Notes: a model not told the origin generated them from the letters alone. A stretch of 64,000 bases of DNA from Bacillota bacterium (GCA_021810565.1 JAJZIM010000002.1:18429-82428); one strand, 5' to 3'. Numbered from the stretch's first letter, positions 7,447 to 27,836 are shown. A program made the numbers and translations.

Positions 7447-8136
7447 CTAGACCCGGGGGCCCGGCCCCCAGCGGCGGAAGTAGCGGTCCATGTTGAGCCC
7501 GGGCGCCTCCCCCTGCCCGATCCGGCCGCGGGTGCCCATCCCCTGGTGCCAAACCGCTCCGGCGCGACTGACCTCGACCGCGAAGCCCGCCTCCAGCACC
7601 CGATTGTTGTAGTCCCAGTCCTCATAGCCGCCGCAAGCCAGGTAGCCCTCGTCGAAACCCCCCACCCGCCGCACCACCCTGACCGGCATCACCCAGGGAC
7701 AGCCGTTGCCCGGCTCCCGCTCATCCCGATGCTCCCGCATGAAGGCCGAGGCCCGCTCGTCGTTCCACTCTTCCCGCCGCCCCGGCAGGTTCCAGGCCGC
7801 CACCTTCCCTATCTGCGGCTGCCTTTCCAGGACCCCCGCCAATCCCTCCAGCCAGCCCGGGAAAAAGACCATGTCGTTGTGGACCCAGGCCACGTAGGGC
7901 AGCTTCTCCGCCAGCAGCGTGCGCAGTCCCTGGTTCAAGGCCTGGGCCAGGGAGATGCCCTCCGGATTGGCCAACACCTCGATTCCCCGGCGGCCCAGCA
8001 GCTCCACCGTCGCGTCCGCCGAGCCCCCGTCCACCACCAAGAGCCGCGGCTGCCCACCGGCGCGCTCCAGGCTGTCCAAGGCCTCCCGCGTCATCTCCCA
8101 GAAGCCGCAGGTGGTCAGGATGATCCCGATCCGCAT
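7447..8136 (-). CDS. small GT2-family glycosyltransferase, paralog family A (copy 1 of 4)
   Basis: Trimmed to M51: MRIGIILTTCGFWEMTREALDSL...LLVVDGGSADAT...WVHNDMVFFPGWLEGL...YEDWDYNNRVLEAG. The same signature recurs at 21759, 23482 and 27108. Confidence 0.75.
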   Translation of the reverse strand: MRIGIILTTCGFWEMTREALDSLERAGGQPRLLVVDGGSADATVELLGRRGIEVLANPEGISLAQALNQGLRTLLAEKLPYVAWVHNDMVFFPGWLEGLAGVLERQPQIGKVAAWNLPGRREEWNDERASAFMREHRDEREPGNGCPWVMPVRVVRRVGGFDEGYLACGGYEDWDYNNRVLEAGFAVEVSRAGAVWHQGMGTRGRIGQGEAPGLNMDRYFRRWGPGPRV

Positions 8137-8834
8137 GAGGCGTCCTCCTTGCGCCGCACAAACTCCCGGATCGCCTCGGGATGCTCCCGGGTGAAGGGCC
8201 GCACCGGCCGGTCGTCCAGGATGGTGTCCGGGTTCACCCCGGCATAGCGATCCGGATCGCCCTCCAGCCGGGCATACTTCTCCCACCGCCGGAAGATGGC
8301 CCGGGGCGGCTTCACGTAGCCGTAGTGCACGAAAAAGATGCCCGCGTCCCGCACCCGCGGTCCCACCCCCACCGGATGTTCATGCACCGCCCCTTCCCAG
8401 TGCAAGGCGGCCGTGCGTCGGATCAGGACCAGGCGCCGGTACTGCTCATCGTGGTCGGCGGCGTTCTGCACGTGGCCGAAGTCCCGCATCAGATGGAAGA
8501 AATAGCTGTAGTAGGCGTCGGCGTCGGAGGCGACCAGCTGCGGGATCCGCCGGGCGGCGTCGGCATAGAACACCATGTCGGCGTCCATGGGCATGACCCA
8601 CCGACCCACGCTGGCCGCCAGGGCCAGGTTCCGCAGCGCCGCGTAGTTCTCGACCCGGGAGCGCAAGAGGCGCACCTTGGGAAAGGCCCGGGCGACGGCA
8701 TCGGTGCCGTCCGAGGAGTAGCCGTCCACCACCACCACCTCGTCCGCCGCCTCGTGCACCGACCGGAGGGAGTACGGCAGGTACTCCGCCTCGTCTTTCA
8801 CGATGTACAAGACACTCAAAGCCCGCTCGCGCAC
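8115..8834 (-). CDS. GT2-family glycosyltransferase
   Basis: 239 aa: MRERALSVLYIVKDEAEYLPYSLRSVHEAADEVVVVDGYSSDGTDAV. GT-A N-terminal DxD-region architecture. Confidence 0.7.
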   Translation of the reverse strand: MRERALSVLYIVKDEAEYLPYSLRSVHEAADEVVVVDGYSSDGTDAVARAFPKVRLLRSRVENYAALRNLALAASVGRWVMPMDADMVFYADAARRIPQLVASDADAYYSYFFHLMRDFGHVQNAADHDEQYRRLVLIRRTAALHWEGAVHEHPVGVGPRVRDAGIFFVHYGYVKPPRAIFRRWEKYARLEGDPDRYAGVNPDTILDDRPVRPFTREHPEAIREFVRRKEDASCGSGSS

Positions 8835-9865
8835 CTTGGACCTCCTCGTCTCGACAGATCTGCCGGTCCCACCCGCCGTCCCGCAGGGATCCGTACGTCG
8901 GGCGGCACCCGCGTGTTCGGCTCCACCGTGCTTCCCGCCCCCAGGGTCACCCGAGCACCCAGCATCGCCCGGGCGCCCACCCGGGCACCCTCACCCACCA
9001 CGCAGCCGTCGGCCAGCACGCAGCGCTCCAGCACCGCTCCCGCCTCCACCTGCACCCCGTCCCACAGCACGCATCCCTCCAGCCGGGCGCCGCGCTCCAC
9101 GCGGCAGCCCCGACCCAGCACCACCGGCGGCTGCAGTTGCGCCGTCGCCTCCACCCGGCTGTCCGCGCCCAGCAGGAGTCCGGGGCCAGGGGTCAGCATG
9201 TCCCCCTGGACCGCCAGATAATCCCGGACCTCCCCCACGTCCCGCCAGGCGCCCCGCAAGAGACACCCGCGGACGGACCCGGCCTCGCAAAGCCGCGGCA
9301 GGACTTCCCGCCCGAAATCCCGCCGCTGCCCCGGCGGCAGCCAGGACAGGGCCGCCGGCTCCAAAACGTAGATCCCCGCGCTGGCCAGGAAACCGGGGGC
9401 CACCCTGCCCGGCTTCTCCACGAACCGCTCCACCGTGGCGCCGCGGCAGCGGGCATACCCCAGCCGACCCGGATCCCGCCGGCGCAGCAGGGCCAGCGTG
9501 ACCAAGCCGCCCGCCTCCCGGTGGTGCCGCACCAGCCGCCGCAGGTCGAGCCGCAACCAAAGGTCCCCCATCAGCACCAACAGCGGCCGGCGGCTCCCCT
9601 CGACCACGGCCCGCACCGCCCCAGCGGTGCCCAGCTCCCGAGCCTCCCGCCGCACCGTCAGGCGCATCCCCGGGGGGAAGGCCTCCCTGAAGCCGTCCCG
9701 GGCCCCGGCAAGCAGCTCCACCCGGGGGAAGCCCTGCGCGCGCAACTGCTCCAGCAGGTGGGCCAAAAGCGGTCGATCCCCCACCGGCAGCATGGGTTTG
9801 GGCCGGGAGAGGGTCAGCGGCCACAGGCGCCGGCCCCGCCCCCCCGCCAAGATCAGCACGCGCAA
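8816..9865 (-). CDS. NDP-sugar pyrophosphorylase (nucleotidyltransferase domain plus C-terminal left-handed beta-helix; mannose-1-P guanylyltransferase / G1P-thymidylyltransferase-like)
   Basis: TTG start: MRVLILAGGRGRRLWPLTLSRPKPMLPVGDRPLL (the GXGXR NTP-transferase motif). The C-terminus is rich in hexapeptide-like repeats (VGEGARVGARAMLGARVTLGAGSTV). Confidence 0.8.
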   Translation of the reverse strand: MRVLILAGGRGRRLWPLTLSRPKPMLPVGDRPLLAHLLEQLRAQGFPRVELLAGARDGFREAFPPGMRLTVRREARELGTAGAVRAVVEGSRRPLLVLMGDLWLRLDLRRLVRHHREAGGLVTLALLRRRDPGRLGYARCRGATVERFVEKPGRVAPGFLASAGIYVLEPAALSWLPPGQRRDFGREVLPRLCEAGSVRGCLLRGAWRDVGEVRDYLAVQGDMLTPGPGLLLGADSRVEATAQLQPPVVLGRGCRVERGARLEGCVLWDGVQVEAGAVLERCVLADGCVVGEGARVGARAMLGARVTLGAGSTVEPNTRVPPDVRIPAGRRVGPADLSRRGGPRCASGL

Positions 9866-9993
9866 GCGTCAGCCCCCCTTGCCGTCTCCGGCGCTCGCAG
9901 GTTATGTATCATCCTCGGGGAAGGTGCCGTTCGTCGGGCCGCGGCGCAAGGAACCATCCGTTCCGTCCGCGGATATTATGTAACCGGGGTCCG

Positions 9994-11013
9994 TCAGTCC
10001 AAAGCGGCCCGGTACACGGCGCAGGTCTCCCGAGCCGTGCGCTCCCAGCTGAAGTCCCGGGCGCGGGCGCGGCCCCGCTCGGCCAACTCGCTGCGCCACC
10101 GGGGATCCTCCAGCGCCCGGACCATGGCCGCCGCCAACTGGACCGGGTCCGCCGGATCCACCGCCGCGACGGCATCCCCCCCCACCTCCCGCAGCACCTG
10201 GATCCGCGAGGCGATGACCGGCGTGCCCAAGCTCATGGCCTCCAGCACCGGCAGGCCGAACCCCTCCCCCCGGCTGGGATACAGCAGGGCGACGGCCTGG
10301 TCCATCAGGGCCGCCAGGGTCGCGGAAGTCAGATAGCCCGTGAGCACCAGCCGGGGATCACCGGCGAGGCCCGCCGCCTGAACTTGCTGCACCACCCGCC
10401 GCCGCGCGTCCCGCGGGCAGCACATCAATAGCCGGCAGGGCAGGGAGGGCGGCAACCGGCGCCACGCCTCCAGCACCCCGGAGAGGTTCTTGCGGGGAAA
10501 GGCGCCCGCCAGGTGCAGGAAGAAGGAGCCGTAAAGAGCGTACCTTGCGCGGACCTGATCCCGCTGGGCCGGATCGGGAGGCCGCAAGGTCGGCGCCAAG
10601 GGCACCACCGCTATGCGTTCGGCCGCCACCCCCGCTCGCTGCCGCAGCTCGTGAGCCGTGACCTGGGAAGGTGCCAGCACCCGTCGCGCCTGAGCCACGG
10701 CCCGACGCAGCGACTCTTTCAGCAGCCGCCGCACCCGAGGTGGATACTCCTCCGGAAGCTCCTCAAAGAGCAGGTCGTGGACGCTCACCACCAGGGGATG
10801 CGCCAGCCCCACCCGGGGCGAGAAGAAAAGCGGATGGTGCACCAGATCCACCCTCGTCGGCGGCCCGGCCAATTCGGAGCCCTTCCAAAGCACCACCCCG
10901 ACCCCCGTCGCCCGGTCCAAGGCTTCGGCCAAGCGCCGGGGGTATAACTGCAGGCCGGTGGCCTCCCCGCCCAGGGCCGCCAGGTCCAGCGCCACCCGCA
11001 GCGGCCTAGTCAT
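9994..11013 (-). CDS. glycosyltransferase GT4
   Basis: 339 aa: ...SRGEGFGLPVLEAMSLGTPVIASR... (GT4 EX7E region). Its start overlaps the stop of the upstream 654-aa ORF by 8 nt. Confidence 0.8.
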   Translation of the reverse strand: MTRPLRVALDLAALGGEATGLQLYPRRLAEALDRATGVGVVLWKGSELAGPPTRVDLVHHPLFFSPRVGLAHPLVVSVHDLLFEELPEEYPPRVRRLLKESLRRAVAQARRVLAPSQVTAHELRQRAGVAAERIAVVPLAPTLRPPDPAQRDQVRARYALYGSFFLHLAGAFPRKNLSGVLEAWRRLPPSLPCRLLMCCPRDARRRVVQQVQAAGLAGDPRLVLTGYLTSATLAALMDQAVALLYPSRGEGFGLPVLEAMSLGTPVIASRIQVLREVGGDAVAAVDPADPVQLAAAMVRALEDPRWRSELAERGRARARDFSWERTARETCAVYRAALD

Positions 11014-12967
11014 CCGGTCGGATGACCAGGTCCCACAGGCGATATTCCACCGCGAGGAGGCACTCCCAGCCCTCCGCAGCGGGACCGGTCTTTGCGGCCC
11101 GGGTCCGCAGGCAAACCCGCATACCCGGTCTGGCGGTCTCCACGGGCAGCCGAAGGTTGAAGGGCGCCTCGCGCCACCAGTGCAGCGCCTCCCAACGCAG
11201 CCGGCCCTGGACGAGGACGAAGCCGCGCCCAGCCGTGCCCCTGATCTCGCGCACCCTTGCCGTCAAGCCACCCTCCGCCGCCGGCGGCTGCCAACGCACC
11301 GGCACCGACAGCTCCCCCCGCTCCCGCAATCGCGCCGCCGTCCGCAGCCGGGTGGGCGCACCGGTTCCCTTGCTGCGAAGCCTAAGCGGCGTCTCCCGCA
11401 GGAGCAGCGCCTGGGCCTCCACCACCAGCCAGCCGCGTACTCCCCCCGGCACCGCCTCCCAGCGTTCCCCCACCAACCGCACTCGGCCCAGCGCCACCCC
11501 TCCCGGTCCCGGTGCCGGGCCAGGCAGGTGCACCTCCACTCGCCGCCTCGTCTCCCAGCGGCTCGCACGCCCCAGAGGGTCCGCCGCCGCGAGCTCCACC
11601 CGCAACCAGCCGCCTACCAGCACCCCGCCCGCCGTGACCCAGGCCCCGCGGGAGCGCAAAGTGCCCGAGGCGTTCAACCCCGTGGCGGCCGACACGGGTC
11701 GGCGCACGAATATCCGGCGCACCGTGCGCCGCCGGAGTCTGGCGATCAGGCGCGGCAGCAGGCAGCTGACGCCCGACCCCTGGGCTTCCTCGACCAATAG
11801 CGGCAGCAGCCGGGAGCGGCTGACCTCCAGCTGCACGGATACCACCAGCCGCACCGTGCTCCGAGGGACGCCCATGCCTTCGAGTTGCAAGCGGGGCCGG
11901 GCACGCATGCCCCTCTTGGCCTCGGGCACGCCCAGCACGGTTTCCCATCGCCGCGCCACGCTAAGCCGGCGCAAGACACCGTCGCCCTCCGCCAGCAACT
12001 GTCCGCCCACCCTGGCCTCCACCAGCACCCTGCCGGAAAGGACCCGTGCCAGGGCAGGCCCCGCCTCGGGGATGAAGCGCAACGCCCGCCACCCCGGCGG
12101 CAGCTCCAGAGGCAGTTCCAGGAGGGTGCTGGAGCTTTTCCGAGTGACCAACTGCTCCGCCGCCACCAGCGCCCGGGGCAGCCCGGAGCCGCGCCGCGTA
12201 CAGGCCACCTCCCGCCACCCGACGCTAAGCCGGCGCACCCGCACCGTCAGGGGGATCGCCAGCAACATCCACCAGCCGCCGGCGGCCAACCGCGCTTCGG
12301 GTTCCCCCGGCCGCGCTTCCCAGCGCACCTCGTCCCCCGGCACGCATCCCGCCAGGGGCAGGAAAACGTCCCAGGAGGTGCGCCCCTCGAACCGGTGCAT
12401 GGTGCCGTCGAAGGCCGTACAGGCCACCCGCAGCGCCAGAGTGCCCGCAAGGCGTATGCCACCGACCAGCGCCTCGCCCCGCACCGCCTCCGACCGGGCC
12501 CGCACCGTGTTCAGATCCCGGGCCCGGGCTTGCAGCAGCCGGCCCACGCTCACCAAGAGTTCGGTTCCGGTCTGCCCCGCCGGACAGGGCAGCCGGATGG
12601 TGACCCAACGCACCGCATCCCGCGGCTCGGAGGGAACGGACTCCAGCTCCAAGCGGGTGTGCAGGGTGACCCATGCGGGATCCGTATCCTCCAGCACGTA
12701 GGCCACGGCCCCGGAGCGCACCGTCAGCTCCCAGCCCTCCTCCGACAGGAAGGGACAGGGGATGCCGAACCGCATCTCCCCCGCGCAGCGTTCCACCGAA
12801 CCGTCGGTGGCCAGGTAGCGCATGGCCCAGCTCCACACGCCCTCCACCACCCCTGCCGCCTCGCCGTCGTGCCACCACCGCTCCACCCTGCCCAGCACCT
12901 CGCTCACGCCGGCCGCCGGCTTCGCCAACGCCACCCGGCACAGCAGCGGAAAACCGCGCCCCGGCAT
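11006..12967 (-). CDS. hypothetical protein, 654 aa, no family recognised by me
   Basis: ORF 11006..13705 trimmed to M247 (cat at 12965-12967), because the first 246 codons overlap the clearly real GT4 at 12979..13962 in another frame. Composition is protein-like (W/F/Y/C/D/E present, alternating hydrophobics). The opposite-strand ORF 11022..12701 is an S/T/R/P low-complexity artefact. Tightly coupled to both neighbours. Confidence 0.55.
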   Translation of the reverse strand: MPGRGFPLLCRVALAKPAAGVSEVLGRVERWWHDGEAAGVVEGVWSWAMRYLATDGSVERCAGEMRFGIPCPFLSEEGWELTVRSGAVAYVLEDTDPAWVTLHTRLELESVPSEPRDAVRWVTIRLPCPAGQTGTELLVSVGRLLQARARDLNTVRARSEAVRGEALVGGIRLAGTLALRVACTAFDGTMHRFEGRTSWDVFLPLAGCVPGDEVRWEARPGEPEARLAAGGWWMLLAIPLTVRVRRLSVGWREVACTRRGSGLPRALVAAEQLVTRKSSSTLLELPLELPPGWRALRFIPEAGPALARVLSGRVLVEARVGGQLLAEGDGVLRRLSVARRWETVLGVPEAKRGMRARPRLQLEGMGVPRSTVRLVVSVQLEVSRSRLLPLLVEEAQGSGVSCLLPRLIARLRRRTVRRIFVRRPVSAATGLNASGTLRSRGAWVTAGGVLVGGWLRVELAAADPLGRASRWETRRRVEVHLPGPAPGPGGVALGRVRLVGERWEAVPGGVRGWLVVEAQALLLRETPLRLRSKGTGAPTRLRTAARLRERGELSVPVRWQPPAAEGGLTARVREIRGTAGRGFVLVQGRLRWEALHWWREAPFNLRLPVETARPGMRVCLRTRAAKTGPAAEGWECLLAVEYRLWDLVIRPDD

Positions 12968-14029: not shown

Positions 14030-15637
14030 TCAAGGATCGCACACGTGGAGCTGTTGGAACTCGGTCACCGTGACGTCGCAATGGATGATGACCTTCTGGG
14101 TCAGCGCACCGGTGTCCGGAACGAACTCCCACAGCAGGTTCTCCACGTGGCAATGCTCGTGCTCCTGCATGCCTTCCTGGACCGGCACCTCCGGGTTCAG
14201 GGGGGTGACCTCCACCATCTCGCTGAAGTCCACATCCTCGAACTCGTGGTGCACCAGGCCGTCGGTCTTGCCCACGAAGTAGATCTGCTTGTGCAGCACG
14301 CCCTGGATGATCACCTTGCCCGCCTTGACGATGGAGACTACGTCCCGCAGGGTGGCGGTGATGTCGACGATCTTCAGGCCGGGAATGGTGATGGTACGCT
14401 CGATGAATTTCTGCTTGTGGCCGCGCCCGATCACCACCGGGGTCTTGATGAAATATCCGTAGGGGGACAGGCACACGGGGATCTCGCGGAACTCATCCAC
14501 CGTTACCTGCACCAGGATGATCACCTTCTGGATCAGCTGACCCGTGGCGGGATCGAACTCCCAGATCAGGTTCTCCACCACGGAGTGGTCCTGCTCGTGC
14601 ATCCCCTCCCGCACCGGCACCGCCGGGTCCAGGGGGGCAACCTCCACCATCTCGCTCCAGGGAACGTCCTCGGCCACGTGATGCACGATGCTGTCCGTGC
14701 CCACGTAGTAGATTTGCTTGTGCAAGGTGCCCTGGACGATGACCTTGCCGGTCTTGACGTGAGAGTGCACCCCGGTAAGCTTCGCCTCGATGTCCACGAT
14801 CTTGACCGCATCGGGGAGCAGGGTCTCGTGGCGCAGGAACTTCTGCTTCTGACCATGCCCGACCACCAGCTTGGCTTCGATGTACGGACCGAAGGGATCC
14901 TCCAGCACGCTGATCTCTTGGGTCTGGGTGACCTTGATGCACAGGTTCAGAATGACCTTCTGGATCAATTGCGCGGTGGCGGGATCATACTCCCAGATCA
15001 GGTTCTCCACGTAGGAGTGGTCCTGCTGGTTCATCCCCGGCTGCACCGGCACGGCGGGATCCACCGGGGGTATCTCCACCAACTCGCTCCACTCGATGTC
15101 CTCGGCCAGGTGGTGCTCCAGGTTGTCTGGTCCGACATAGTAGATCTGCTTGTGCAGGGTGCCCTGCACGATCACCTTGCCTTCCTTCACTATCGAGCGC
15201 ACGTGCACCAAGCTAGGGACGATGTCGACGATCTTCACCGCTTCCAGGCTGATGATCTCCTCGATGAACTTCTGCCTGCAGTTCTCTCCGACGACCACCT
15301 CGGCCTTGATGAGCACCTTCTCCGGCGTCTCCACGCTATCCATGGCTATCCCCCCTTCGCCTCCCGCTCCCGGAACGACCGCTTCCACCACCACGCTGGC
15401 ACCCCGGATCTCCTCCTCCTGCATCGGTTTGGCCGCCTCTTCCTCCCCCGGCTCCGCCTCCTGGCCAGGAGGCATCGCCGCGTCCGGGCCGATGAGCGAC
15501 CCCTGCACCTCGGGCGGCTCCTCGACTAGCAGGTGCTCCCGCGCCGCTGCCGCCTCCGCCGCCATCGCTCCCGCCAACCGGCCGCCCCCCAGGGCGCTCC
15601 GCGCCCGCGACACCCAATCCCTCAGCAACCTGTGCAC
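14030..15637 (-). CDS. tandem-repeat DUF3794/SPOCS-like protein (spore-coat-assembly-type domain), 3 x ~144-aa modules
   Basis: 535 aa. The motif KIVDI...GKVIVQGTLHKQIYYVG..HH.AEDV.WSEMVEV.PLDP.VPV.EGM...DH.VENLIWEFDP.TG.LIQKVI starts at aa 135, 279 and 422. The acidic N-terminal linker and the true start (several in-frame M) are uncertain. The SPOCS assignment is from memory of Pfam PF12673. Confidence 0.7.
   Translation of the reverse strand: MHRLLRDWVSRARSALGGGRLAGAMAAEAAAAREHLLVEEPPEVQGSLIGPDAAMPPGQEAEPGEEEAAKPMQEEEIRGASVVVEAVVPGAGGEGGIAMDSVETPEKVLIKAEVVVGENCRQKFIEEIISLEAVKIVDIVPSLVHVRSIVKEGKVIVQGTLHKQIYYVGPDNLEHHLAEDIEWSELVEIPPVDPAVPVQPGMNQQDHSYVENLIWEYDPATAQLIQKVILNLCIKVTQTQEISVLEDPFGPYIEAKLVVGHGQKQKFLRHETLLPDAVKIVDIEAKLTGVHSHVKTGKVIVQGTLHKQIYYVGTDSIVHHVAEDVPWSEMVEVAPLDPAVPVREGMHEQDHSVVENLIWEFDPATGQLIQKVIILVQVTVDEFREIPVCLSPYGYFIKTPVVIGRGHKQKFIERTITIPGLKIVDITATLRDVVSIVKAGKVIIQGVLHKQIYFVGKTDGLVHHEFEDVDFSEMVEVTPLNPEVPVQEGMQEHEHCHVENLLWEFVPDTGALTQKVIIHCDVTVTEFQQLHVCDP
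14033..15328 (-). repeat. three ~432-nt tandem direct repeats inside the SPOCS-like CDS
   Basis: Nucleotide-level repeats, e.g. ctgcttgtgcag(c/g)(a/g)(c/t)gccctg(g/c)a(t/c)gat(c/g)accttgcc at ~14283, ~14712 and ~15146 (spacing 429/434). Confidence 0.8.
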
Positions 15638-19014: not shown

Positions 19015-19973
19015 CGCAACTGCGCCGCCGGTCGGGTCCGCCAATGCTCCAGCACGTCGGCCAGGCTGCGCTCCCAGGGGATGGCCGGCACCCATCCCGT
19101 GGCTTCCCGCAGTTTCCCGGCGTCACCCCGGATGTCGGGCAGGTCCACCGCCCGCACCCGCCGCGCCTCCTGCTCCACCCGCACCGGAACCCGCGCCAGA
19201 CGGCGCAGGGACTCCAGCACCTCGGCCACCGATCGGCTGTGTCCCGTGGCCAAGTTGTATACCTCGCCCACCCGGCCACCGGTGGCCGCCAGGAGGTAGC
19301 CGCGCACCACGTCCCGCACGTCGCCGAGGTCGCGCCGCGGCGCGAGATTCCCCACCCGCAGCACCGGCGGGCCCAGGCCCCGCTCCGCCGCCGCCACCTG
19401 CCGGGCCAGGTCGGGTACCAGGTGGCGGCGGTCCTGGCCGGGGCCGGTGTAGCTGAAGCTGCGCACCACCACCACCCCCAAGCCCCAACGGCGGGCGTAG
19501 CTAAGCCCCAGCAGGCTCTGGCACAGCTTGCTGATCCCGTAGGGGGTGCACGGCCGCAGCCGGCTGTCCTCGGTGAGCGGCAGCTCCGCCCGGGGCGCGG
19601 GGCCATACTCCTCGCAGGACCCTATCAGGAGGACCCGGGCCTCGGGTGCCTGGCGCCGCACCGCTTCCAGCAGCCGGGCGGCACCGGTCGCGTTGGTCCG
19701 GAGGGTGGCCAGGGGGTCTTCCCAAGAGGCCGGCACCGAGGTCCTCCCCGCCAGATGGAAAACCACCCGCGGCGTCGCCTCGGCCACGATCTCCTCCCAT
19801 CCCTTGGCCGTGAGATCCGCCCGCCGCATTCTAACGCGGTCCCGAAAGGGAGTCACCCGGTCCAGGCTGCCGGCCGAGCGGGCCGTGCCCCACACCTCCC
19901 ATCCCTCACCCAGCAGCAACCGGGCCAGATGGCTGCCGGCGAATCCGTTGATGCCGGTGATCAGCGCCCGCAT
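19011..19973 (-). CDS. NAD-dependent epimerase/dehydratase family protein (GDP-4-keto-6-deoxy-D-mannose reductase Rmd-like), copy E1
   Basis: ORF 19011..20732 trimmed to M254 (cat at 19971-19973): MRALITGINGFAGSHLARLLLGEGWEVWG...YGISKL (Rossmann GxxGxxG plus catalytic YxxxK). Paralog of 25243..26214. Confidence 0.8.
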   Translation of the reverse strand: MRALITGINGFAGSHLARLLLGEGWEVWGTARSAGSLDRVTPFRDRVRMRRADLTAKGWEEIVAEATPRVVFHLAGRTSVPASWEDPLATLRTNATGAARLLEAVRRQAPEARVLLIGSCEEYGPAPRAELPLTEDSRLRPCTPYGISKLCQSLLGLSYARRWGLGVVVVRSFSYTGPGQDRRHLVPDLARQVAAAERGLGPPVLRVGNLAPRRDLGDVRDVVRGYLLAATGGRVGEVYNLATGHSRSVAEVLESLRRLARVPVRVEQEARRVRAVDLPDIRGDAGKLREATGWVPAIPWERSLADVLEHWRTRPAAQLR

Positions 19974-20695: not shown

Positions 20696-21742
20696 TCACG
20701 CCCCTCCCGCCGCGGCGATGCGGGCCAGCCAACGCCGCGCTGTCCGATGATAGGAGAAACCGCGGGCCCGGCGCCGCGCCTGCCGCGACAGCCGCGCCAG
20801 CCGTGGCGGGTCTGCCAGGAGGTCGGCGACCGCTCCAGCCATCCGCAAGGTGAAGTCACCCTCCCCCGGCCATCCGGGAAGCAGGATGCCGGTGGCCCCG
20901 TCGGCCACCGTGGTGGTGAGCGCCCCCAGGCGAGTGGCCACCGTGGGCGCCCCGGCCGCCTGGCACTCCAAGGCAGCCAGACAGAACAGCTCCGGCACGG
21001 TGCATGGATACAGGTGCATGGCGGCGGTCATCTGCTCCCGCACCAACCGGGAGCGGGAGACCTTGCCCAGATACTCCACTCCCGGCAGTCCGGCCAGCCG
21101 CCGCCGGTGCTCCTCGTCCCCCGGAGGGCGGCCCCACAGGGAGAAATCGCTGGTGACCACCAGGTGCGCCGCGGCGCAGCGCCGCTGGATCTCCTCCAGG
21201 ATCGGCCCCAGGTGCTCGGCCCCCCGGCCCGGCACCGAGCAGTAGAGCAGCTTCGCCGGATCCCGCCGCGGCCCGGCGCGGTAATCGGAGAGGTTCACCC
21301 CCAGGGGGATCTCCCACAAGAGCGCCGGGGACAACCCCGAGCGGCGCGCCAACTGGGCCGTGTGGTAGGGGCTCAGGGTGACCACCGCCCGCAGGTGGGG
21401 CAGCAGGTGCTCCCAGTCCCCCACCAACACGGCATCTTCCTCACAGGACCAAAACAGCTTGACCCGCGAGCGCACCCCGGGCAGGCACTCCACCGGGCCC
21501 CGCATCCCCACGAAGGCATCCCACCCCTCCCCCTTTCCGAGGCTGCCCCGGGGCCGGTAGCACACCCCCCGATGCACCTCGGGCCGGCCCACGCCGCAAA
21601 ACACCGTCACCGCCGCGTGCCGGGCCAGGTGCCGCACCAGCAAGATCAGGGCCGTCTCCGTGCCGCCCAATCCCCGGCCCTCCAGATCGGCGCCACGCCA
21701 GCCCCAATCCCCGGGGGCGTCATAGTAGAAGGCGATGCGCAC
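20696..21742 (-). CDS. glycosyltransferase GT4 (type G, copy 1)
   Basis: MRIAFYYDAPGDWGWRGADLEGRGLGGTETALILLVRHLA...ELFCLAALECQAAGAPTVATRLGALTTTVADGATGILL. Paralog of 24197..25246. Confidence 0.8.
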   Translation of the reverse strand: MRIAFYYDAPGDWGWRGADLEGRGLGGTETALILLVRHLARHAAVTVFCGVGRPEVHRGVCYRPRGSLGKGEGWDAFVGMRGPVECLPGVRSRVKLFWSCEEDAVLVGDWEHLLPHLRAVVTLSPYHTAQLARRSGLSPALLWEIPLGVNLSDYRAGPRRDPAKLLYCSVPGRGAEHLGPILEEIQRRCAAAHLVVTSDFSLWGRPPGDEEHRRRLAGLPGVEYLGKVSRSRLVREQMTAAMHLYPCTVPELFCLAALECQAAGAPTVATRLGALTTTVADGATGILLPGWPGEGDFTLRMAGAVADLLADPPRLARLSRQARRRARGFSYHRTARRWLARIAAAGGA

Positions 21743-21758: not shown

Positions 21759-22457
21759 TCAGTACAGATTGGTTACCCGTGGCGCGTCCGACCCCCACCG
21801 CGCCACGTAGCGGCGGCGGTTGGCCGCCTCGCCGTCCAGACGCACCGCATAGCGGGTGGCGGCGGCACGGTGCCACACCACGCTGCCCTTGGTCACCAGC
21901 ACGGCGTAGCCGGCCGCCAGGAGGCGGTTGTTGTAGTCCCAATCCTCGTACTCGGCGTGGTTGACATAGCCCTCGTCGTGGGGACCCACCGCCTCGGCCG
22001 CCGCCCGGGGGATCACCCACGGGTTGCCGTTGCCGGCTTCCAGAAAAGCGCCCTGGGTCCGGACGAATTCCGCCACCTCCGCCTCGGTGTATTCCCGGTC
22101 CAACAGGTTCCAGGAGGACACCTTGCCCGCCCCGGGCCGGCGCTCCAGGACCGCCAGCAATCCCGACAGCCAACCCGGGTAGAAGACCATGTCGTTGTGG
22201 ATCCAACAAAGGCAATCCACGACCGGATCGGTCAGCAGATGGGAGCGCGCCCGGTTCTGAACCCAGGGCAGCGATCGGGGAGCACGGCCCGTCAGCACCT
22301 CCACCCCCTCTCGGCGCAAAAACTCCGGCGTCCCGTCCCGGGATCCGTTGTCCACCGCGATCAGGCGGTGCGGCGCGTCCACGGTACGTCGAAAGCTCTC
22401 CAGGCAGCGCCGGGTGAGCGGCAGGAAGTCGAAACAGGTGAGGAAGACGCCCACCAT
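21759..22457 (-). CDS. small GT2-family glycosyltransferase, paralog family A (copy 2)
   Basis: MVGVFLTCFDFLPLTRRCLESF...LIAVDNGSRDGT...WIHNDMVFYPGWLSGL...YEDWDYNNRLLAAG. Confidence 0.75.
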   Translation of the reverse strand: MVGVFLTCFDFLPLTRRCLESFRRTVDAPHRLIAVDNGSRDGTPEFLRREGVEVLTGRAPRSLPWVQNRARSHLLTDPVVDCLCWIHNDMVFYPGWLSGLLAVLERRPGAGKVSSWNLLDREYTEAEVAEFVRTQGAFLEAGNGNPWVIPRAAAEAVGPHDEGYVNHAEYEDWDYNNRLLAAGYAVLVTKGSVVWHRAAATRYAVRLDGEAANRRRYVARWGSDAPRVTNLY

Positions 22458-22460: not shown

Positions 22461-23468
22461 TCACGCCACCAGCTCCAGATAGCGGCGGGCCACCTGGTCC
22501 CAGCAGTTGGCATCGATGAAGGCCTGCTGGCGGCGCTCCCGCTCGGGGTCCACCAAGCCGTGCTGCAGCCAGACGGCCAGCTCCCCGGGATCACGCAGCT
22601 TGACGAACACATCTGCCGGCAGGTCTTGGAACCAGGGTACCCCGTTGTTCACCAGCACCAGGCGGTGCGCGGCCACGGCCAGTTGCGCCGCGCTCGAGAC
22701 CACCTGGGCGTCCACCGGCGGATACCACAACACGGTGGCGTGGGCCGCCGCCAGCCGACCCACCAATTCGCGCTGGTCGAACCAATCGCGCAGCAGGATC
22801 AGGTCGGCGGCGTTGGGCAGGGTGCAGGAATACAGGGGATCGAAGGCCAGGGTGGTCCAGCCGATGCTCCGGGCCGCGCCGTAGATCAGCCGGTAATCCA
22901 CCTTTCCCATTCCCAGGGTGGCCACCAGGTCGGCGGGCCAGCCCTCCCGGTGCTGCACCTCCCGCCGGGGCACCTCGGGCAGCCGCTGCACCCCCTGGGG
23001 GATCACCGTAGCCCCCGGCAACCGACGGAGAAGGCTGGCGCCATGCACCACCCGAACGTCCGCCAACTCGGGCAGCCCCGAGGGGATGTACGAGTCGTGG
23101 AAGGTCACCACCCGCCGCAGCCCCCGGGCGGCGCAGCGAGCCAACAGCTCGGTCAGAAAAGCCCCCGGATAGATGGAGGCCTGGTACTCCACCAACAGGG
23201 CCCGGATCTCCCAGCCCATGATCTGGCGCCAGACCAGCTCAAGGTCGTAGCCCGCCCCCCGGGACCACGGCTGCACCTCGAAGCAGGCCACCGCTTCCGG
23301 TTCGGAGCGGGTCAGCCGTCCCCGGTGCTCGGGGCGGATGCGCCCGTCGGTCCAATTGCCGAAGATGGTCACCGCGTGTCCCTGCTCCCGCAGTTTGCCG
23401 GCCAACTCCACCGCGTTCTCGGCCACCGCGCACTTGATGCCGTGGGAGGACAGGATGCCGATGCGCAA
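22461..23468 (-). CDS. glycosyltransferase, GT-B-like (GT1/GT4 superfamily, divergent)
   Basis: 335 aa: MRIGILSSHGIKCAVAENAVELAGKLREQGHAVTIFG... Two Rossmann-like halves; weaker similarity, hence lower confidence. Confidence 0.55.
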   Translation of the reverse strand: MRIGILSSHGIKCAVAENAVELAGKLREQGHAVTIFGNWTDGRIRPEHRGRLTRSEPEAVACFEVQPWSRGAGYDLELVWRQIMGWEIRALLVEYQASIYPGAFLTELLARCAARGLRRVVTFHDSYIPSGLPELADVRVVHGASLLRRLPGATVIPQGVQRLPEVPRREVQHREGWPADLVATLGMGKVDYRLIYGAARSIGWTTLAFDPLYSCTLPNAADLILLRDWFDQRELVGRLAAAHATVLWYPPVDAQVVSSAAQLAVAAHRLVLVNNGVPWFQDLPADVFVKLRDPGELAVWLQHGLVDPERERRQQAFIDANCWDQVARRYLELVA

Positions 23469-23481: not shown

Positions 23482-24192
23482 TCAAAAGGGTGCGGGCAGG
23501 CGCAGGTGCAGGCTGCCCCATTTCCCGATGTAGCGCGCCTTGTTGCTCTCGTCCCAATCCGGCCGGTGGGTGTGACGTCGGGTGCCGGCCTGCTCGTGCC
23601 GCACCGCGCTGGCCTTGGTGATCATCACCGGGTATCCGGCCAGGAGCAGGCGGTTGTTGTAGTCGTGGTCCTCGTAGATGCAGTCGCCCACGTAGCCCTC
23701 GTCGTGCAGGCCCACCTCCTCCACCACCGCTCGGGGCATGATCCAGGGCACCGCGTTTCCCAGCTTGAGGTAGCCGCCGGACAGGCGCATGAAGCGTCCC
23801 ACCTCCTCCTCGGTGAAGTCTCTGGACTCGGTCAACTCCCACGGGGAAAGCTTGCCGATCCACGGCGCGCGCTGAAACACCTGCCCCAGGTTCGCGAGCC
23901 ACCCCGGGAAGAAGCGCATGTCGTTGTGGATCCAGGCCAGGTGGGTCACCCCCGGATCCGCCAGGAGCCGGCATAACCCCAGGTTGATGGCCGCCGCCTG
24001 GCTGCACGGCGCCGCCACGGCGATCACCTCGTAGCCCCGGGAAAGCAGGTATTCCCGGGTGCCGTCCTCGGACGCGTTGTCCACCACCACCAGGCGGTGG
24101 GGCGTGTGGTCGGACCCGTAGTGGAAGCTGTCCAGGGCCGATCGGGTCTTCTCCAGGAAATTGTAGGTGGTGAGCACCACTCCCGCCAACAT
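23482..24192 (-). CDS. small GT2-family glycosyltransferase, paralog family A (copy 3)
   Basis: MLAGVVLTTYNFLEKTRSALDSF...LVVVDNASEDGT...WIHNDMRFFPGWLANL...YEDHDYNNRLLLAG. Confidence 0.75.
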   Translation of the reverse strand: MLAGVVLTTYNFLEKTRSALDSFHYGSDHTPHRLVVVDNASEDGTREYLLSRGYEVIAVAAPCSQAAAINLGLCRLLADPGVTHLAWIHNDMRFFPGWLANLGQVFQRAPWIGKLSPWELTESRDFTEEEVGRFMRLSGGYLKLGNAVPWIMPRAVVEEVGLHDEGYVGDCIYEDHDYNNRLLLAGYPVMITKASAVRHEQAGTRRHTHRPDWDESNKARYIGKWGSLHLRLPAPF

Positions 24193-24196
24193 CGCA

Positions 24197-25246
24197 TCAT
24201 CTCCCCTCGGACAACGCGGCCAGTTTCGCCGTCCAGTCCCCCGCCACCGCCTCCCAGGAAAAACCGCTCAGGGCCCGGCAATGGGCCGCCTCCCCCATGG
24301 CCTGCAGCCGCTGGGGATCGCGCAGCAGGGCCAACACCGCCTCGGCGAAAGCGCGATGGCCTTCGGGATCGGCGTGGGGGGAACGCTCCAGGAGGATCCC
24401 CGTGACCCCGTCCGCCACCGTGGTGGCCAGGGCTCCGATCCGCGGCGCCACCGTGGGCGCCCCCGCCGCCTGGCACTCCAGGGAGGCCAGGCAGAACAGC
24501 TCCTGCACCAGACACGGGTACAGGTGCACCACGCTCTCACCCTGCAGCCGCACCAGCTCGCGCCGCGGCAACTTTCCCAGATAGCGCACCCCCGGCACCC
24601 CGGCCAAGGTGGCCCGATAAGGGGCGTCCCCCGGATCCGAGCGGCCCCACAGTCGAAAGTCGCCGGTGACCACCAGGGAGGCGGCCGGATATGCTTCCCG
24701 GATCATCCCGAAGATGGGCGCCAGATGCTCCGCCCCGCGGTCGGGCACCGAGCAGTAGATCAGCCGGCCCGGCACCTTGCGCGCCGGCGCGGCATACTCC
24801 GCCGGGGACACCCCCAAGAAGCCGGTGTGCAGCTTCCCGGGGGGAATGGCGAAACGTCGGGACAAAAGCTCGGCATGAAAGGGGCTCAAGGCGAAGACGC
24901 AATCCAGGTGGGGCAGGTAGTCGCGGTAGCTTTTCACCCGCACCTGGTCATCCTCCAAGGACCAGTGCACCTTGACCCGGGCGGGAAGCTCCCGGATGCC
25001 GGGGGTGTAGGACAGGCTGACGAAGGCGTCCCAAGGGCCGCCGCGCTCCAGCAGTCCGACCGGCAGGTAGGTGACGCCGGCGTGCCGGCCCGGGCGGCGC
25101 GTGCCGTTGTACACCGTGACCCGGTGGTGGCGGGCCAGCTCCCGGGCCAGGAAGACCAGGGCGGCCTCCGTGCCGCCCAGGCCCCTTCCCTCCAGATCCT
25201 CTCCCCGCCAGTCCCAGGTGTCCGCCAGGTAAAAGGCGATTTTCAT
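24197..25246 (-). CDS. glycosyltransferase GT4 (type G, copy 2)
   Basis: ORF 24197..26140 trimmed to the internal ATG (cat at 25244-25246), 349 aa: MKIAFYLADTWDWRGEDLEGRGLGGTEAALVFLARELA...ELFCLASLECQAAGAPTVAPRIGALATTVADGVTGILL. The upstream 298 codons of the track ORF are an antisense/alternate-frame artefact over the epimerase gene. Confidence 0.8.
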   Translation of the reverse strand: MKIAFYLADTWDWRGEDLEGRGLGGTEAALVFLARELARHHRVTVYNGTRRPGRHAGVTYLPVGLLERGGPWDAFVSLSYTPGIRELPARVKVHWSLEDDQVRVKSYRDYLPHLDCVFALSPFHAELLSRRFAIPPGKLHTGFLGVSPAEYAAPARKVPGRLIYCSVPDRGAEHLAPIFGMIREAYPAASLVVTGDFRLWGRSDPGDAPYRATLAGVPGVRYLGKLPRRELVRLQGESVVHLYPCLVQELFCLASLECQAAGAPTVAPRIGALATTVADGVTGILLERSPHADPEGHRAFAEAVLALLRDPQRLQAMGEAAHCRALSGFSWEAVAGDWTAKLAALSEGR

Positions 25247-26214
25247 GCCGTCCGCCTGCCGCCCAGCCGTTCCCGCCAATATTCCAGGAGGTCGGCCAGC
25301 GTGCGCTCGAAGGGAAGCTCGGGACCCCAGCCGGTGCGCTCCCGGAACCGGCCCGCGTCCCCCAGCAGCACCGGCACGTCGGAGGGACGCAGCCTGGTCG
25401 GATCCCGGCGCACCTCGATGGGCACCCGCGCCAGGTCCAGGAGGATATCCACCACCTCGCCGATGGAGTGGGCCTGGCCGCTGGCTAGGTTGTAGACCGC
25501 CCCGGGCTCCCCCAGCTCCAGGGCCAGCCGGTAGGCGCGGACCATGTCCCGCACGTCGGTGAAATCGCGGCGGGCGGAAAGGTTCCCCACCCACAGCACC
25601 GGCTCCTTGAGGCCCAGTTCGATCTGAGCCACTTGGCGAGCGAAATCGGAGGTGGCGAACACCTTGCCCCGCCGCGGGCCGGTGTGGTTGAAGGCCCGGG
25701 TGCGCACCACCGCCAGACCGTAGCTGGCGAAATACTGGTATCCTAGGTAGTCTTGGGCCACCTTGCTCACGGCGTAGGGGGAAAGGGGACGCAGGGGATT
25801 CTCCTCCCCGATGGGCAGTTCCTCCTCCCGCACCAGTCCGTACTCCTCCGAGGAGCAGGCCACCAGGATCCGCGGGGCGGGATCGAGCCGGCGGGACGCC
25901 TCCAACAGGTTCAACTCCCCCAGCACATTGGTGGCGAAGGTCTCCTCCGGTTCCCGCCAGGAGGTGGGCACGAAGCTCTGGGCCGCCAAGTGGAAGATCC
26001 CCTCGGGAGCCACCTCCGCCACGGCCCGCCAAGTCGCCCAGGAATCGCGCAGGTCCGCCTCCACCAAGTGCACCCGTCCCGCCAAGTGGCGGATGTTGTC
26101 CAGGGGGCTGCGCCAGCGCACCAGGCCCCATACCTCCCAACCGGACTGCTCCAGGAGATGCTCGGCCAAGTGACTGCCCGCGAAGCCGGTGATACCCGTG
26201 ATCAGCACCCGCAA
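25243..26214 (-). CDS. NAD-dependent epimerase/dehydratase family protein (Rmd-like), copy E2
   Basis: MRVLITGITGFAGSHLAEHLLEQSGWEVWG...YAVSKV. Paralog of 19011..19973. ATGA overlap with the downstream GT4. Confidence 0.8.
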   Translation of the reverse strand: MRVLITGITGFAGSHLAEHLLEQSGWEVWGLVRWRSPLDNIRHLAGRVHLVEADLRDSWATWRAVAEVAPEGIFHLAAQSFVPTSWREPEETFATNVLGELNLLEASRRLDPAPRILVACSSEEYGLVREEELPIGEENPLRPLSPYAVSKVAQDYLGYQYFASYGLAVVRTRAFNHTGPRRGKVFATSDFARQVAQIELGLKEPVLWVGNLSARRDFTDVRDMVRAYRLALELGEPGAVYNLASGQAHSIGEVVDILLDLARVPIEVRRDPTRLRPSDVPVLLGDAGRFRERTGWGPELPFERTLADLLEYWRERLGGRRTA

Positions 26215-26289
26215 GGATATCTCCTCCGTCCCTTCGTTATGTCACCACATGCTATGCACCTGCCCTTCCGCCGGTCACCCTTGGTCGGC

Positions 26290-27114
26290 TCAAAGGTCCG
26301 TGATCACCGCGTTGGACCACAGCGCCGCCGATTCGGCCTGGCCCACCGAACCCCATTTGCGCAGGAAGGCCTTGCGGGCGGCGGCATCGGAACCGGACGG
26401 CAGGTGGCGGTCCGTGGCCCCGCCGAAATGGTGGACGTACACCCCGCCGTAGACGTAGACCCGGGAGCAGCGAGGATGGCGCTGGGTGCGCAGGAAGTAG
26501 TCAATGTCCTCGTACCAGGCCGGGCCGAAGCTCTCGTCGAAGGGACCCAGCTCCTCCACCAACTCGCGGCGCAGCAGCATGCACGCGGCGTTGTGCATCG
26601 CCAGGCGCACTCCGGCGTGCCGCTCGCCGAAGGCTGCGGCGAAGGCGTCGAAGCTGCCGCCGTAGGCCCCGTCCAGGTCGTCCCAGGTGCGACCCGACCC
26701 GATGCGCTCCCGCTCCGGGAACAGATCCGGCCGCAGGCTCAGACGCCAGTTGTCGCAGGCGCACACGATGCCAGCTGTGGGGTGGCCTTCCATCTCCCGC
26801 AGCAGTCCCTCCAGCCATCTCGGCGACAACACCACGTCGTTGTTGCAGATGCACACGTGCCGAGCGCCGGCGGCGGCCAGCCCCTGGTTCCACGCCCGGG
26901 CCACTCCCAGGTTGCCCCGGTTGCGGATGACCCGGGCACCGGCGGCGGCGAACAGCGCCGCGGTGTCGTCGTCGGAGCCGTTGTCCACCCCGATCAACTC
27001 GGTTGCGCCTGGGGTGTGGCGCCGGAAGGAGCCCAGGAACCCCCGGGTGAATTCCCGTTGGTTGTGGGCGGCCACCACCACCGCGCAGGACGCCTCCCCG
27101 CCCGCCCTCACCAC
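26290..27114 (-). CDS. GT2-family glycosyltransferase (type B, copy 2)
   Basis: Track ORF 26290..27399 has an ATG start that would overlap the upstream gene by ~140 nt. I propose a GTG start at ~27111-27114, overlapping the upstream TGA: VVRAGGEASCAVVVAAHNQREFTRGFLGSF...LIGVDNGSDDDT...CNNDVVLSPRWLEGLL. Confidence 0.65.
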   Translation of the reverse strand: MVRAGGEASCAVVVAAHNQREFTRGFLGSFRRHTPGATELIGVDNGSDDDTAALFAAAGARVIRNRGNLGVARAWNQGLAAAGARHVCICNNDVVLSPRWLEGLLREMEGHPTAGIVCACDNWRLSLRPDLFPERERIGSGRTWDDLDGAYGGSFDAFAAAFGERHAGVRLAMHNAACMLLRRELVEELGPFDESFGPAWYEDIDYFLRTQRHPRCSRVYVYGGVYVHHFGGATDRHLPSGSDAAARKAFLRKWGSVGQAESAALWSNAVITDL

Positions 27115-27836
27115 AGGCGGCGCTCCAGGGCCGCCCCCGGGTGGCACCAGCCCCAGTGCAGGTGACCCCACTTGCGGCTGTAATAGGCGCGGTTTTGCTC
27201 CTCCGCCCCGACCGGCTGCAGGGCGCCACGGGTGGTGGCGTTGCATCCGTGCCACACCAGGCTGCGGCGGGTAACCATGACCGGGATCCCCCGCTCCAGC
27301 AGGCGGTTGTTGTAGTCCCAATCCTCGTAGGCCCCCCCGTGGACGAACCCCTCGTCGTGGGGACCGACCTCGGCGACGGCCCACTTGGGCATCAGCCACG
27401 GGATGGCGTTCCCCAGGCGCAGCCAGTTTCGCTCCCGCTCGATGCGCGCCAGGACCTCGCCGTCGTCGGGCACCTCCCCCGTGAGATGCGTGGCCCCCAG
27501 CTTGCCGATCTCGGGGTGTTCCCGCAGCACGGCCACCAGATTGTCCAGCCAGCGGGGCAAAAGGATCATGTCGTTTTCAATCCAGCCGATGTACTCCACC
27601 TCCGGATCGTCCATGAAGGCGGCGGTACCCAGGTTCATGGCCCGGGGCAGGCTCACGCGCTCCGGGCTGATCCACACCTCGTGGCCCATCTCCCGCAGCC
27701 GCTGCGGCGTTCCGTCGTCGGAACAATTGTCCAGGATCAAGAGGCGGCACCGGCCCTCGGTGCAGCGCCGAAAGCTCTCCAGACAGCGTTGGGTCTGTTC
27801 CCAAAGGTTGAAGGTGGTCAGGAATATCCCCACCAA
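27108..27836 (-). CDS. small GT2-family glycosyltransferase, paralog family A (copy 4)
   Basis: Track ORF 27108..27908. By analogy to the other three copies (MVGVF/MRIGII/MLAGVV), the probable start is TTG at ~27836 (or GTG at 27833) with GGAGGG 8 nt upstream: (M)VGIFLTTFNLWEQTQRCLESF...LLILDNCSDDGT...WIENDMILLPRWLDNL...YEDWDYNNRLLERG. Confidence 0.7.
   Translation of the reverse strand: MVGIFLTTFNLWEQTQRCLESFRRCTEGRCRLLILDNCSDDGTPQRLREMGHEVWISPERVSLPRAMNLGTAAFMDDPEVEYIGWIENDMILLPRWLDNLVAVLREHPEIGKLGATHLTGEVPDDGEVLARIERERNWLRLGNAIPWLMPKWAVAEVGPHDEGFVHGGAYEDWDYNNRLLERGIPVMVTRRSLVWHGCNATTRGALQPVGAEEQNRAYYSRKWGHLHWGWCHPGAALERRLW

Follow-up and report, generated by a model that had tools for sequence, protein, structure and literature searches.

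Four paralogous genes for small glycosyltransferases of family 2 (GT2), here named c1 to c4, are encoded in a 64,000-nucleotide stretch of DNA from a Bacillota bacterium (GCA_021810565.1, JAJZIM010000002.1:18429-82428), which we refer to as the window and whose DNA is about 70% GC. The copies belong to an uncharacterised subfamily of a known kind of enzyme. We consider it probable, at roughly 60%, that they act as mother-cell inverting glycosyltransferases which build a spore-envelope glycan from a transporter-free locus of sigmaK type. Of most interest is the comparison across genomes, which links the family to late-sporulation promoters.

The four genes are as follows:

7447-8136, minus strand: c1, small GT2 paralog of 229 amino acids (aa), ATG start; main clade of the family
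21759-22457, minus strand: c2, small GT2 paralog of 232 aa, ATG start; the copy chosen for modelling
23482-24192, minus strand: c3, small GT2 paralog of 236 aa, ATG start; carries the motif YEDHDYNNR
27108-27836, minus strand: c4, small GT2 paralog of 242 aa, TTG start; heads the upstream operon and has the DxD variant E-N-D

All four are complete open reading frames (ORFs), as an earlier reading of this DNA (the original prediction) had proposed. They are 41-50% identical in pairs (BLASTP, E 1e-50 to 6e-73), a similarity far beyond chance, and their third-position GC of 80-88% is typical for real genes of the same genome. The start of c1 overlaps the 3' end of the upstream GT2 gene by 22 nt. 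That c4 uses a TTG/GTG start and had been over-extended in the ORF track was also predicted correctly, as the mechanical ORF reaches 27908, while the TTG at 27836 is followed directly by GTG and preceded at 9 nt by the ribosome-binding site GGAAGGAGGG; the resulting product of 242 aa equals the public gene call P0001. The expectation that four copies in one locus are unusual holds as well, because among the other loci, which have one copy, only L017 and L026 reach two. Calling the proteins unusually small was an overstatement, given that three further GT2 genes in the locus encode 239-263 aa and that about 230 aa is the bare GT-A core.

The signature motifs were compared position by position on a hidden Markov model (HMM) of the family, with 73 family domains set against 650 other GT2 domains from 186 proteins. 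Residues common to the family and this outgroup are D89, W96-L97, G158, F160-D161-E162, G169, Y/F170, E171, D172, D174, R178, G183, H196, N213 and K220-W221. Specific to the family, with the outgroup residue in brackets, are W85, H87 (N), M90 (T), F92, PGN...PW at 141-147, W173 (D/V), Y175 (L/F), N176 (C), N177 (L/F), W195, M199-G200-T201-R202 and Y217. W173, Y175, N176 and N177 occur in 75-95% of family domains, and W173 in 12% of the outgroup domains, whereas E171 and D172 are found in 94% of the family and still in 62-66% of the outgroup. D89 is present in 95% of family domains, is invariant in an alignment of 61 sequences (A2) and aligns with the last Asp of the outgroup N-(N/S)-D. Two ordinary GT2 proteins illustrate the equivalent sites: P0066 reads LLNSDLELLPGWL ... 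GGFDEGFVNGGEDIDFCFRARAAGH with GGEDIDFCFR in the xED region, and P0115 reads LLNNDTIVTQGWL ... GGLDEQFGSGNFEDDDFCIRAFQVGF with NFEDDDFCIR.

An xED motif with the catalytic Asp at the start of helix alpha-F and a C-terminal His belong to the GT-A common core, and an E-D-x-D-(aromatic/aliphatic)-x-N/x-R run at the start of this helix carries the catalytic base (PMC7185993). In the model of c2, Y170-E171-D172 opens helix 169-181 and H196, also invariant in A2, ends strand 185-196. These positions match the GT-A core sites, so that HNDM..PGWL is the DxD region and YEDWDYNNR a decorated xED motif. H/E87-N88-D89 is thus the predicted DxD-type site for metal and nucleotide, Y170-E171-D172 the predicted xED motif with D172 as putative catalytic base, and H196 the likely metal-binding C-terminal His; PGNxxPW is the G-loop region. 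The catalytic positions are retained in c1, c2, c3 and c4, with deviations at other family-conserved positions in c3 (W173H, W195R) and c4 (H87E).

The motif as a new GT2 element consequently does not hold. The original prediction is therefore supported in part: the subfamily is real and distinctive, but of the refuting conditions that were named beforehand two apply, one concerning this motif and one the kinship of the copies. HNDM..PGWL, which had been listed as part of the signature, is the DxD region with the outgroup equivalents shown above. The C-terminal motif had been described as no recognisable GT2 hallmark, and an alignment had been proposed to see whether EDWDYNNR is subfamily-specific: its W173, Y175, N176 and N177 are indeed specific, but E-D-x-D-x3-R, that is its E, D, D and R, is the xED skeleton common with ordinary GT2 enzymes. 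The four specific residues follow the putative catalytic Asp on the acceptor-side helix, and from this position a role in acceptor binding is plausible. The wording of the motifs also needs correction. DNGS.DGT is exact in c2 only (DGGSADAT in c1, DNASEDGT in c3, DNCSDDGT in c4); HNDM.F.PGWL is only approximate, c4 having ENDMILLPRWL; and EDWDYNNRLL is not invariant, since c3 has EDHDYNNRLL and c1 EDWDYNNRVL.

Membership in GT2, as predicted, is supported by PF00535, whose curated cut-off of 23.3 bits is passed by all copies (50.3, 34.7, 26.1 and 45.4 bits for c1 to c4). Matches in the C-terminal half, to GT2-like and Glyco_transf_7C models, are all sub-threshold in Pfam; for PF02709 (Glyco_transf_7C) c1 alone gives a match, at 21.0 bits over its residues 145-189, and the gathering score of 23 is not reached. 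NCBIfam contains no model for the family, and none of its models scores close to the respective cut-off: among the named glycosyltransferase equivalogs (MftF, arsenosugar glycosyltransferase, AglJ, EpsD, HpsE) the best score is 38 bits against the 280 needed (MftF), and c2 is without any match. The four-copy profile gave only weak N-terminal matches in the PDB (best E 0.0098, GmaR), and a 65-aa segment with the motif gave a non-significant alignment to GlfT2 (E 0.8) and chance matches; the family has no close solved relative in the PDB. From 61 family sequences, AlphaFold2 modelled c2 with a GT-A fold, at a predicted local distance difference test (pLDDT) score of 95.4 and a predicted template-modelling (pTM) score of 0.92. 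With this model, Foldseek returned 443 PDB matches at E <= 0.001. Every match listed is a GT-A enzyme, and TM-scores are 0.62-0.73 (TMq) at 15-19% sequence identity. They include GT27 ppGalNAc-transferases, AvpGT, the GDP-fucose GT2 WrtF and a Leptospira GT2; that GT27 comes first is largely due to its heavy representation among solved GT-A structures. The copies constitute a distinct, unnamed and rare GT2 subfamily, and the best-supported reading of the motifs and the model is that they are catalytically intact inverting GT-A glycosyltransferases.

In a profile search of 5.8 billion proteins the signature was found in about 60 clusters at 90% identity, beyond which scores fall sharply to ordinary GT2 enzymes. 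Only about 14 of the 150 representatives listed in an exhaustive representative profile search carry the signature, so that the family can be called rare. The giant proteins that top this second search were rejected as members, as they are without EDWDYNN and HNDM and owe their rank to the summed scores of 3-8 ordinary GT2 domains; proteins P0115-P0257, of 1000-4400 aa and each with 3-8 such domains in tandem, dominate the exhaustive search. In P0064, P0150 and P0184 an additional GT2-like domain (about 220 aa, VVDN.STD...DADE) is fused to the N-terminus, and WxHPDM stands in place of WxHNDM. Most family members end 5-6 residues past the conserved KWG with a hydrophobic last residue, and 28 of 61 have a C-terminus matching P-[RKPQ]-[VIAL], typically ...KWGxGPRV. 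This KWG-type ending is kept by c1, which ends at window position 7450; the tails of c2, c3 and c4 are longer and divergent, and the c4 clade ends in ...HWGWCHP...RLW.

A neighbour-joining tree of 61 family members places c2, c3 and c4 in one clade together with proteins of other samples and c1 in the main clade. The copies had been expected to be mutually closest relatives, yet c1, c2 and c4 have nearer relatives in other samples: c4 shares 70-71% identity with P0004 and P0005, the closest relative of c2 is P0008 (54%), and c1 is closest to P0009 and P0011 (55%) against 40-45% to its own paralogs. With nearer relatives elsewhere, the copies stem from old duplications and have presumably diverged in linkage or acceptor.

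A survey of 185,579 species-representative genomes matched 21 loci, 17 of them in Bacillota. The carriers are Thermaerobacter, Moorella, Clostridia and Bacillota metagenome-assembled genomes (MAGs), Brevibacillus borstelensis, Paenibacillus cymbidii, Priestia abyssalis, Effusibacillus, Fictibacillus and Peribacillus. One alphaproteobacterial locus was rejected as a partial match with 22% identity over 58 residues; the other three are divergent loci in Spirochaete MAGs. The family is nearly confined to endospore-forming Bacillota. Where Bacillota loci were examined, the gene lies within clusters of soluble GT4/GT2 enzymes, nucleotide-sugar enzymes and sugar methyltransferases, and no export genes are found in those examined in detail. 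Recurrent partners (tblastn) are a 335-aa GT4-like gene, often directly adjacent, a 239-aa GT2 in 13 loci, and a GT4; an Rmd-like enzyme, homologous to the short-chain dehydrogenase/reductase (SDR) at 25243-26214 of the window, is found in five other loci at 59-69% identity.

In the window, the copies lie in a glycan locus of 22 genes (5213-27836, minus strand), bordered by a rodA/spoVE-like gene (27950-29074) and an opposite-strand permease gene (4116-5225). Its 15 glycosyltransferases are the four small GT2 enzymes, three other GT2 enzymes (239, 243 and 263 aa) and eight GT4 or GT4-like enzymes. The remaining genes encode a nucleotidyltransferase, two SDRs, a cupin, an amino-acid permease, two SPOCS/DUF3794 proteins and a 653-aa unmatched protein.

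The mother-cell sigmaK promoter has a -35 AC and a -10 CATAnnnTA (PMC3789822), and the B. subtilis sps spore-polysaccharide loci are sigmaK-driven in the mother cell (PMC7439481). CATA boxes, which are rare in the GC-rich DNA of the window, occur in intergenic regions of the locus, and sigmaK-like motifs precede both operons that contain small GT2 copies. The relevant sites are:

27860-27885, minus strand: sigmaK-like motif AC-N16-CATATCCT, its -10 box some 31 nt before the c4 start
27914-27933, minus strand: intrinsic terminator between the rodA/spoVE-like gene and c4
26249-26275, minus strand: sigmaK-like motif AC-N17-CATAGCAT, upstream of the Rmd/Gmd-like gene
15713-15688, minus strand: sigmaK-like motif upstream of the 532-aa SPOCS gene
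9998-9973 and 9925-9899, minus strand: two sigmaK-like motifs ahead of the nucleotidyltransferase gene, the first gene of the c1 operon
53943-53918, minus strand: sigmaK-like motif AC-N16-CATATTAT, just upstream of the GT2 gene at 53077-53874, outside the locus

Because of the terminator, c4 begins a separate transcription unit, and no sigma-70-like site was seen upstream of it. All seven matches of the window to the relaxed pattern AC-N16/17-CATAnnnT are on the minus strand, and six of them are intergenic, upstream of c4, the Rmd-like gene, the 532-aa SPOCS gene, the nucleotidyltransferase gene (two) and the GT2 gene at 53077-53874. Independently of the window, the 120 nt upstream of the homologous gene were searched in 24 loci of other genomes, and the strict AC-N16/17-CATAnnnTA was found in six of them (L027, L021, L019, L007, L008, L009) and the relaxed form in nine. 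The enrichment of the sigmaK motif upstream of homologs is clear, and the motifs make the operons of the window candidates for sigmaK dependence.

Further genes of the locus that could be described individually are:

8115-8834, minus strand: small GT2 of 239 aa that lacks the family motif; 13 other loci with the family also contain a homolog of it (37-53% identity)
8816-9865, minus strand: sugar-1-phosphate nucleotidyltransferase of 349 aa, most similar to ManB/ManC-type enzymes; best NCBIfam match mannose-1-phosphate guanylyltransferase, below cut-off
11006-12967, minus strand: Arg-rich protein of 653 aa with no Pfam/NCBIfam match and no transmembrane-like segments
14030-15628, minus strand: SPOCS (DUF3794) spore-envelope protein of 532 aa with three tandem repeats of about 125 aa, SipL-like
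15806-16861, minus strand: second SPOCS-domain protein, 351 aa, with a strong terminator upstream at 16930-16899
19011-19973, minus strand: second Rmd/Gmd-like SDR, 320 aa, 50% identical to the SDR at 25243-26214; Rmd match E 4e-63
20696-21742, minus strand: GT4 of 348 aa, paralog of the GT4 at 24197-25246
22461-23468, minus strand: GT4-like enzyme of 335 aa between c3 and c2; homologs adjoin the small GT2 gene in several other genomes
24197-25246, minus strand: GT4 of 349 aa, 53% identical to the GT4 at 20696-21742
25243-26214, minus strand: SDR of 323 aa; best solved match the GDP-6-deoxy-D-lyxo-4-hexulose reductase Rmd (2pk3, E 4e-84)

Proteins of the SPOCS type, among them SipL, CotE, CsxA and CsxC, have scaffold or morphogenetic roles in the spore envelope, and SipL has three tandem SPOCS domains (bioRxiv 10.64898/2026.09.03.749163). 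The repeats of the 532-aa protein, KxVVGxxxxQKFIE...KIVDI...GKVIVQGTLHKQIYYVG..., are encoded in a stretch of lower GC (64%) and give a weak match to the CsxC family. Neither the SPOCS proteins nor the 653-aa protein, for which tblastn found no homolog in the other loci, contain Ser/Thr-rich or collagen-like acceptor stretches. A hydropathy scan gave at most one marginal hydrophobic window per locus protein, the amino-acid permease excepted, and Pfam and NCBIfam scans of the 22 genes detected no flippase or polymerase (Wzx/Wzy), no ATP-binding cassette (ABC) exporter and no priming transferase. Several genes are paired within the locus (c2/c3 50% identical, the 348-aa and 349-aa GT4 enzymes 53%, the two SDRs 50%, the 243-aa and 263-aa GT2 enzymes 32%, the SPOCS pair 30%), which indicates that it grew by duplication of several genes together with the small GT2. 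A simple tandem duplication of a module was rejected, since the order in which the paired genes follow one another does not form a clean tandem repeat. Contigs of a Thermaerobacter sp. MAG (e.g., GCA_027447505.1) match the window, and JGI, ENA and NCBI assemblies contain the locus with all four copies.

The flanks of the locus are housekeeping genes, with tsaD-rimI-tsaB-tsaE, a thiL-like gene and a uracil-DNA glycosylase gene at 1-4000 and minE-minD-minC-mreD-mreC-mreB-radC at 29166-34579; clpB, dnaJ-grpE-dnaK, folC, valS, lonA, lonB and clpX follow further along the window. This order recalls the clpX-lon...valS-folC...radC-mreBCD-minCD region of B. subtilis, in which spoVID is located. Next to radC-mreB lies a 604-aa ORF (34858-36672, minus strand) with a Cas12f1-like TNB (TnpB-type zinc-ribbon) domain; it probably encodes a nuclease associated with TnpB/IS605-family transposons. 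Between the dnaK operon and folC/valS, where the GC content is lower, the ORF at 44389-45237 (minus strand) has a HepT-like (toxin-type nucleotidyltransferase-partner) domain. Another glycan cluster, a small one (50348-53943), consists of:

50348-51853, plus strand: Polysacc_synt/MurJ-like flippase-type gene, 22 kb from the glycan locus
51886-52407, minus strand: GNAT gene
52497-53276, minus strand: methyltransferase gene
53077-53874, minus strand: GT2 gene

Taken together, these data suggest the following scheme. The locus would be transcribed from sigmaK-type promoters in the mother cell during late sporulation, and c1 to c4 would be soluble inverting GT-A enzymes with D172 as base, each adding one beta-linked sugar alongside about eleven other soluble GT2/GT4 enzymes. 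Judging by the neighbouring genes, the sugar would probably come from GDP-mannose and could be D-rhamnose or mannose. Assembly would take place in the cytoplasm directly on a spore-surface acceptor, as in the sps/cge system of B. subtilis. W173, Y175, N176 and N177, on the acceptor-facing helix, would probably set acceptor specificity.

Several observations weigh against this scheme. The relaxed pattern that gave seven sites in the window, compared with 1.7 +/- 1.4 expected, was picked after the sequences had been viewed; the strict consensus with its final TA is absent from the window, where the motifs end in TG, TC or TT, and strict B. subtilis-type sigmaK, sigmaE and sigmaF/G patterns had no match in its 5-30 kb part. 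For the 24 loci, background rates of 0.029/kb (strict) and 0.105/kb (relaxed) give nominal binomial P values of about 6e-11 and 1e-12, which are overstated because the background is whole-locus and mostly coding DNA, intergenic DNA being more AT-rich, and because L007, L008 and L009 come from related genomes. No SPOCS homolog was found by tblastn beside the family in the other loci. The Polysacc_synt flippase-like gene at 50348-51853, 22 kb away, leaves room for lipid-linked assembly encoded elsewhere. Finally, the three divergent Spirochaete members come from non-sporulating organisms. One of them (L020, 3628-5373, in a Spirochaetia MAG), a 283-aa protein with about 31% identity and an insertion, is encoded directly 3' of a glycoside hydrolase family 130 (GH130) beta-mannoside phosphorylase gene with no other glycosyltransferase nearby; this neighbour hints at a mannose-type substrate and a non-spore use, and the context implies that the family is not strictly tied to spores.

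Of the alternatives, the one that survives best, though we consider it unlikely, is a vegetative surface glycan, for example the glycan of an S-layer glycoprotein, a polymer of the secondary cell wall or a capsule, built on a lipid carrier with priming, transport and ligase functions encoded elsewhere; in that case the small GT2 enzymes would simply elongate the chain like ordinary transferases. The Rmd-type GDP-D-rhamnose pathway is best known from the S-layer glycan of Aneurinibacillus thermoaerophilus and the Pseudomonas common antigen, and its presence in the locus agrees with this alternative, as do the flippase-type gene at 50348-51853, with its neighbouring GT2, methyltransferase and GNAT genes, and the adjoining cell-shape genes mreBCD-minCDE-rodA. 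However, no priming phosphoglycosyl transferase, Wzx/Wzy, ABC exporter or O-antigen-ligase-like gene was found in the locus or in the 20-kb homolog loci examined, the locus itself includes two genes for SPOCS spore-envelope proteins, the motifs before the operons are of sigmaK rather than sigma-70 type both here and in other genomes, and the family is nearly confined to spore formers.

We regard as still less probable a cytoplasmic target outside the envelope, with flagellin, pilin, a ribosomal peptide, a small-molecule natural product and a soluble pool of beta-mannosides or oligosaccharides as candidates. The solubility of all enzymes and the Spirochaete homolog beside GH130, with no other glycosyltransferases nearby, would suit such a target, and so would the GT27 protein O-glycosyltransferases among the best structural matches, but these are only 15-19% identical and GT27 is over-represented among solved structures. 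About fifteen glycosyltransferases argue for a large glycan, and the window contains no flagellar, pilin, precursor-peptide, radical-SAM, polyketide synthase or nonribosomal peptide synthetase genes. Flagellin glycosylation was rejected for want of flagellar genes in the window, as was SunS-type peptide or natural-product glycosylation, for which no precursor or tailoring genes are present. That the copies are redundant or partly decayed duplicates, only one of them functional and their motif a mark of recent common ancestry, is very improbable: the sequence comes from a MAG and c3 and c4 deviate from the family at W173, W195 and H87, but the catalytic residues are complete in all four, identities of 41-50% speak for old divergence under constraint, H87E is common to the c4 orthologs P0004, P0005, P0007 and P0010 and so marks a clade and not decay, the third-position GC is 80-88%, and independent JGI, ENA and NCBI assemblies contain the same four-copy locus.

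A spore-envelope role of the four copies invites a wider reading, which we put forward tentatively as possible but not as the likelier outcome: that the small GT2 is a dedicated, sigmaK-controlled sporulation glycosyltransferase family which extends from Bacilli to Clostridia and the deep-branching, high-GC Thermaerobacter, travels with a partner set (the 335-aa GT4-like enzyme, the 239-aa GT2, a GT4 and an Rmd/Gmd-type enzyme) and makes beta-D-rhamnosyl or beta-mannosyl linkages from GDP-sugars on spore-envelope proteins. If so, it would define a core module of spore-surface glycans that is widely shared and had gone unrecognised, and its expansion to four copies in Thermaerobacter would serve to build a glycan of unusual complexity around the SPOCS scaffold proteins. 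Spore-surface glycans govern the adhesion, hydrophobicity and dispersal of spores, and to our knowledge they are known in detail for only a few Bacillus and Clostridioides species. A family near-confined to spore formers, found in transporter-free loci and preceded by sigmaK-type promoters in several lineages, would serve both as a marker of spore glycan loci and as an entry point to them in spore formers that are uncultured or little studied, thermophiles like Thermaerobacter among them. The minimal GT-A domain of about 230 aa, with its aromatic and Asn-rich helix past the putative catalytic base, could also serve as a compact system for studying acceptor specificity.

With respect to known systems, the nearest relatives outside the family in the profile search are ordinary WbbL-like/GT2_like domains, including the tandem domains of the 1000-4400-aa multi-glycosyltransferase proteins. 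They have the same GT-A core and the same skeleton, (L/I)xN(N/S)D...PGWL, GxFDExF, GxxEDxDxxxRxxxxG, a C-terminal His and a trailing N...KW, but they are without W85, H87, M90, the PGNxCPW loop, W173, Y175, N176, N177, W195 and MGTR, are usually longer or fused, and are not limited to spore formers. A similar E-D-x-D run is seen in the Gal/GalNAc-T motif of GT7 and GT27, which in beta-1,4-galactosyltransferase 1 (beta4GalT1) is EDDDIFNR; the Glyco_transf_7C match of c1, at 21 bits, lies below the 23-bit Pfam cut-off, and GT27 enzymes differ in being retaining enzymes with a lectin domain and 15-19% identity to the copies. WrtF, a GDP-fucose fucosyltransferase (GT2, PDB 9omh-9omn), is likewise a small GT2 that uses a GDP-6-deoxyhexose and is among the best matches of the copies (profile E ~0.04, fold E ~1e-10), with a likeness at the general GT-A level only (16-19% identity). 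The two SDRs of the locus match Rmd of the GDP-D-rhamnose systems (A. thermoaerophilus, 2pk3; P. aeruginosa, 6x3b), but the known D-rhamnan systems use lipid carriers and ABC exporters, both of which the locus is without. SpsA of B. subtilis is not among the 19 PDB sequences listed for the four-copy profile (all PDB chains, E <= 1); its DxD-equivalent motif is written differently and it has no detectable specific sequence relationship to the family. In kind and setting it is nevertheless alike, being a small (256 aa) soluble GT2 whose sigmaK-driven, transporter-free mother-cell operon for a spore-surface glycan also includes genes of a 6-deoxyhexose pathway (PMC7439481).

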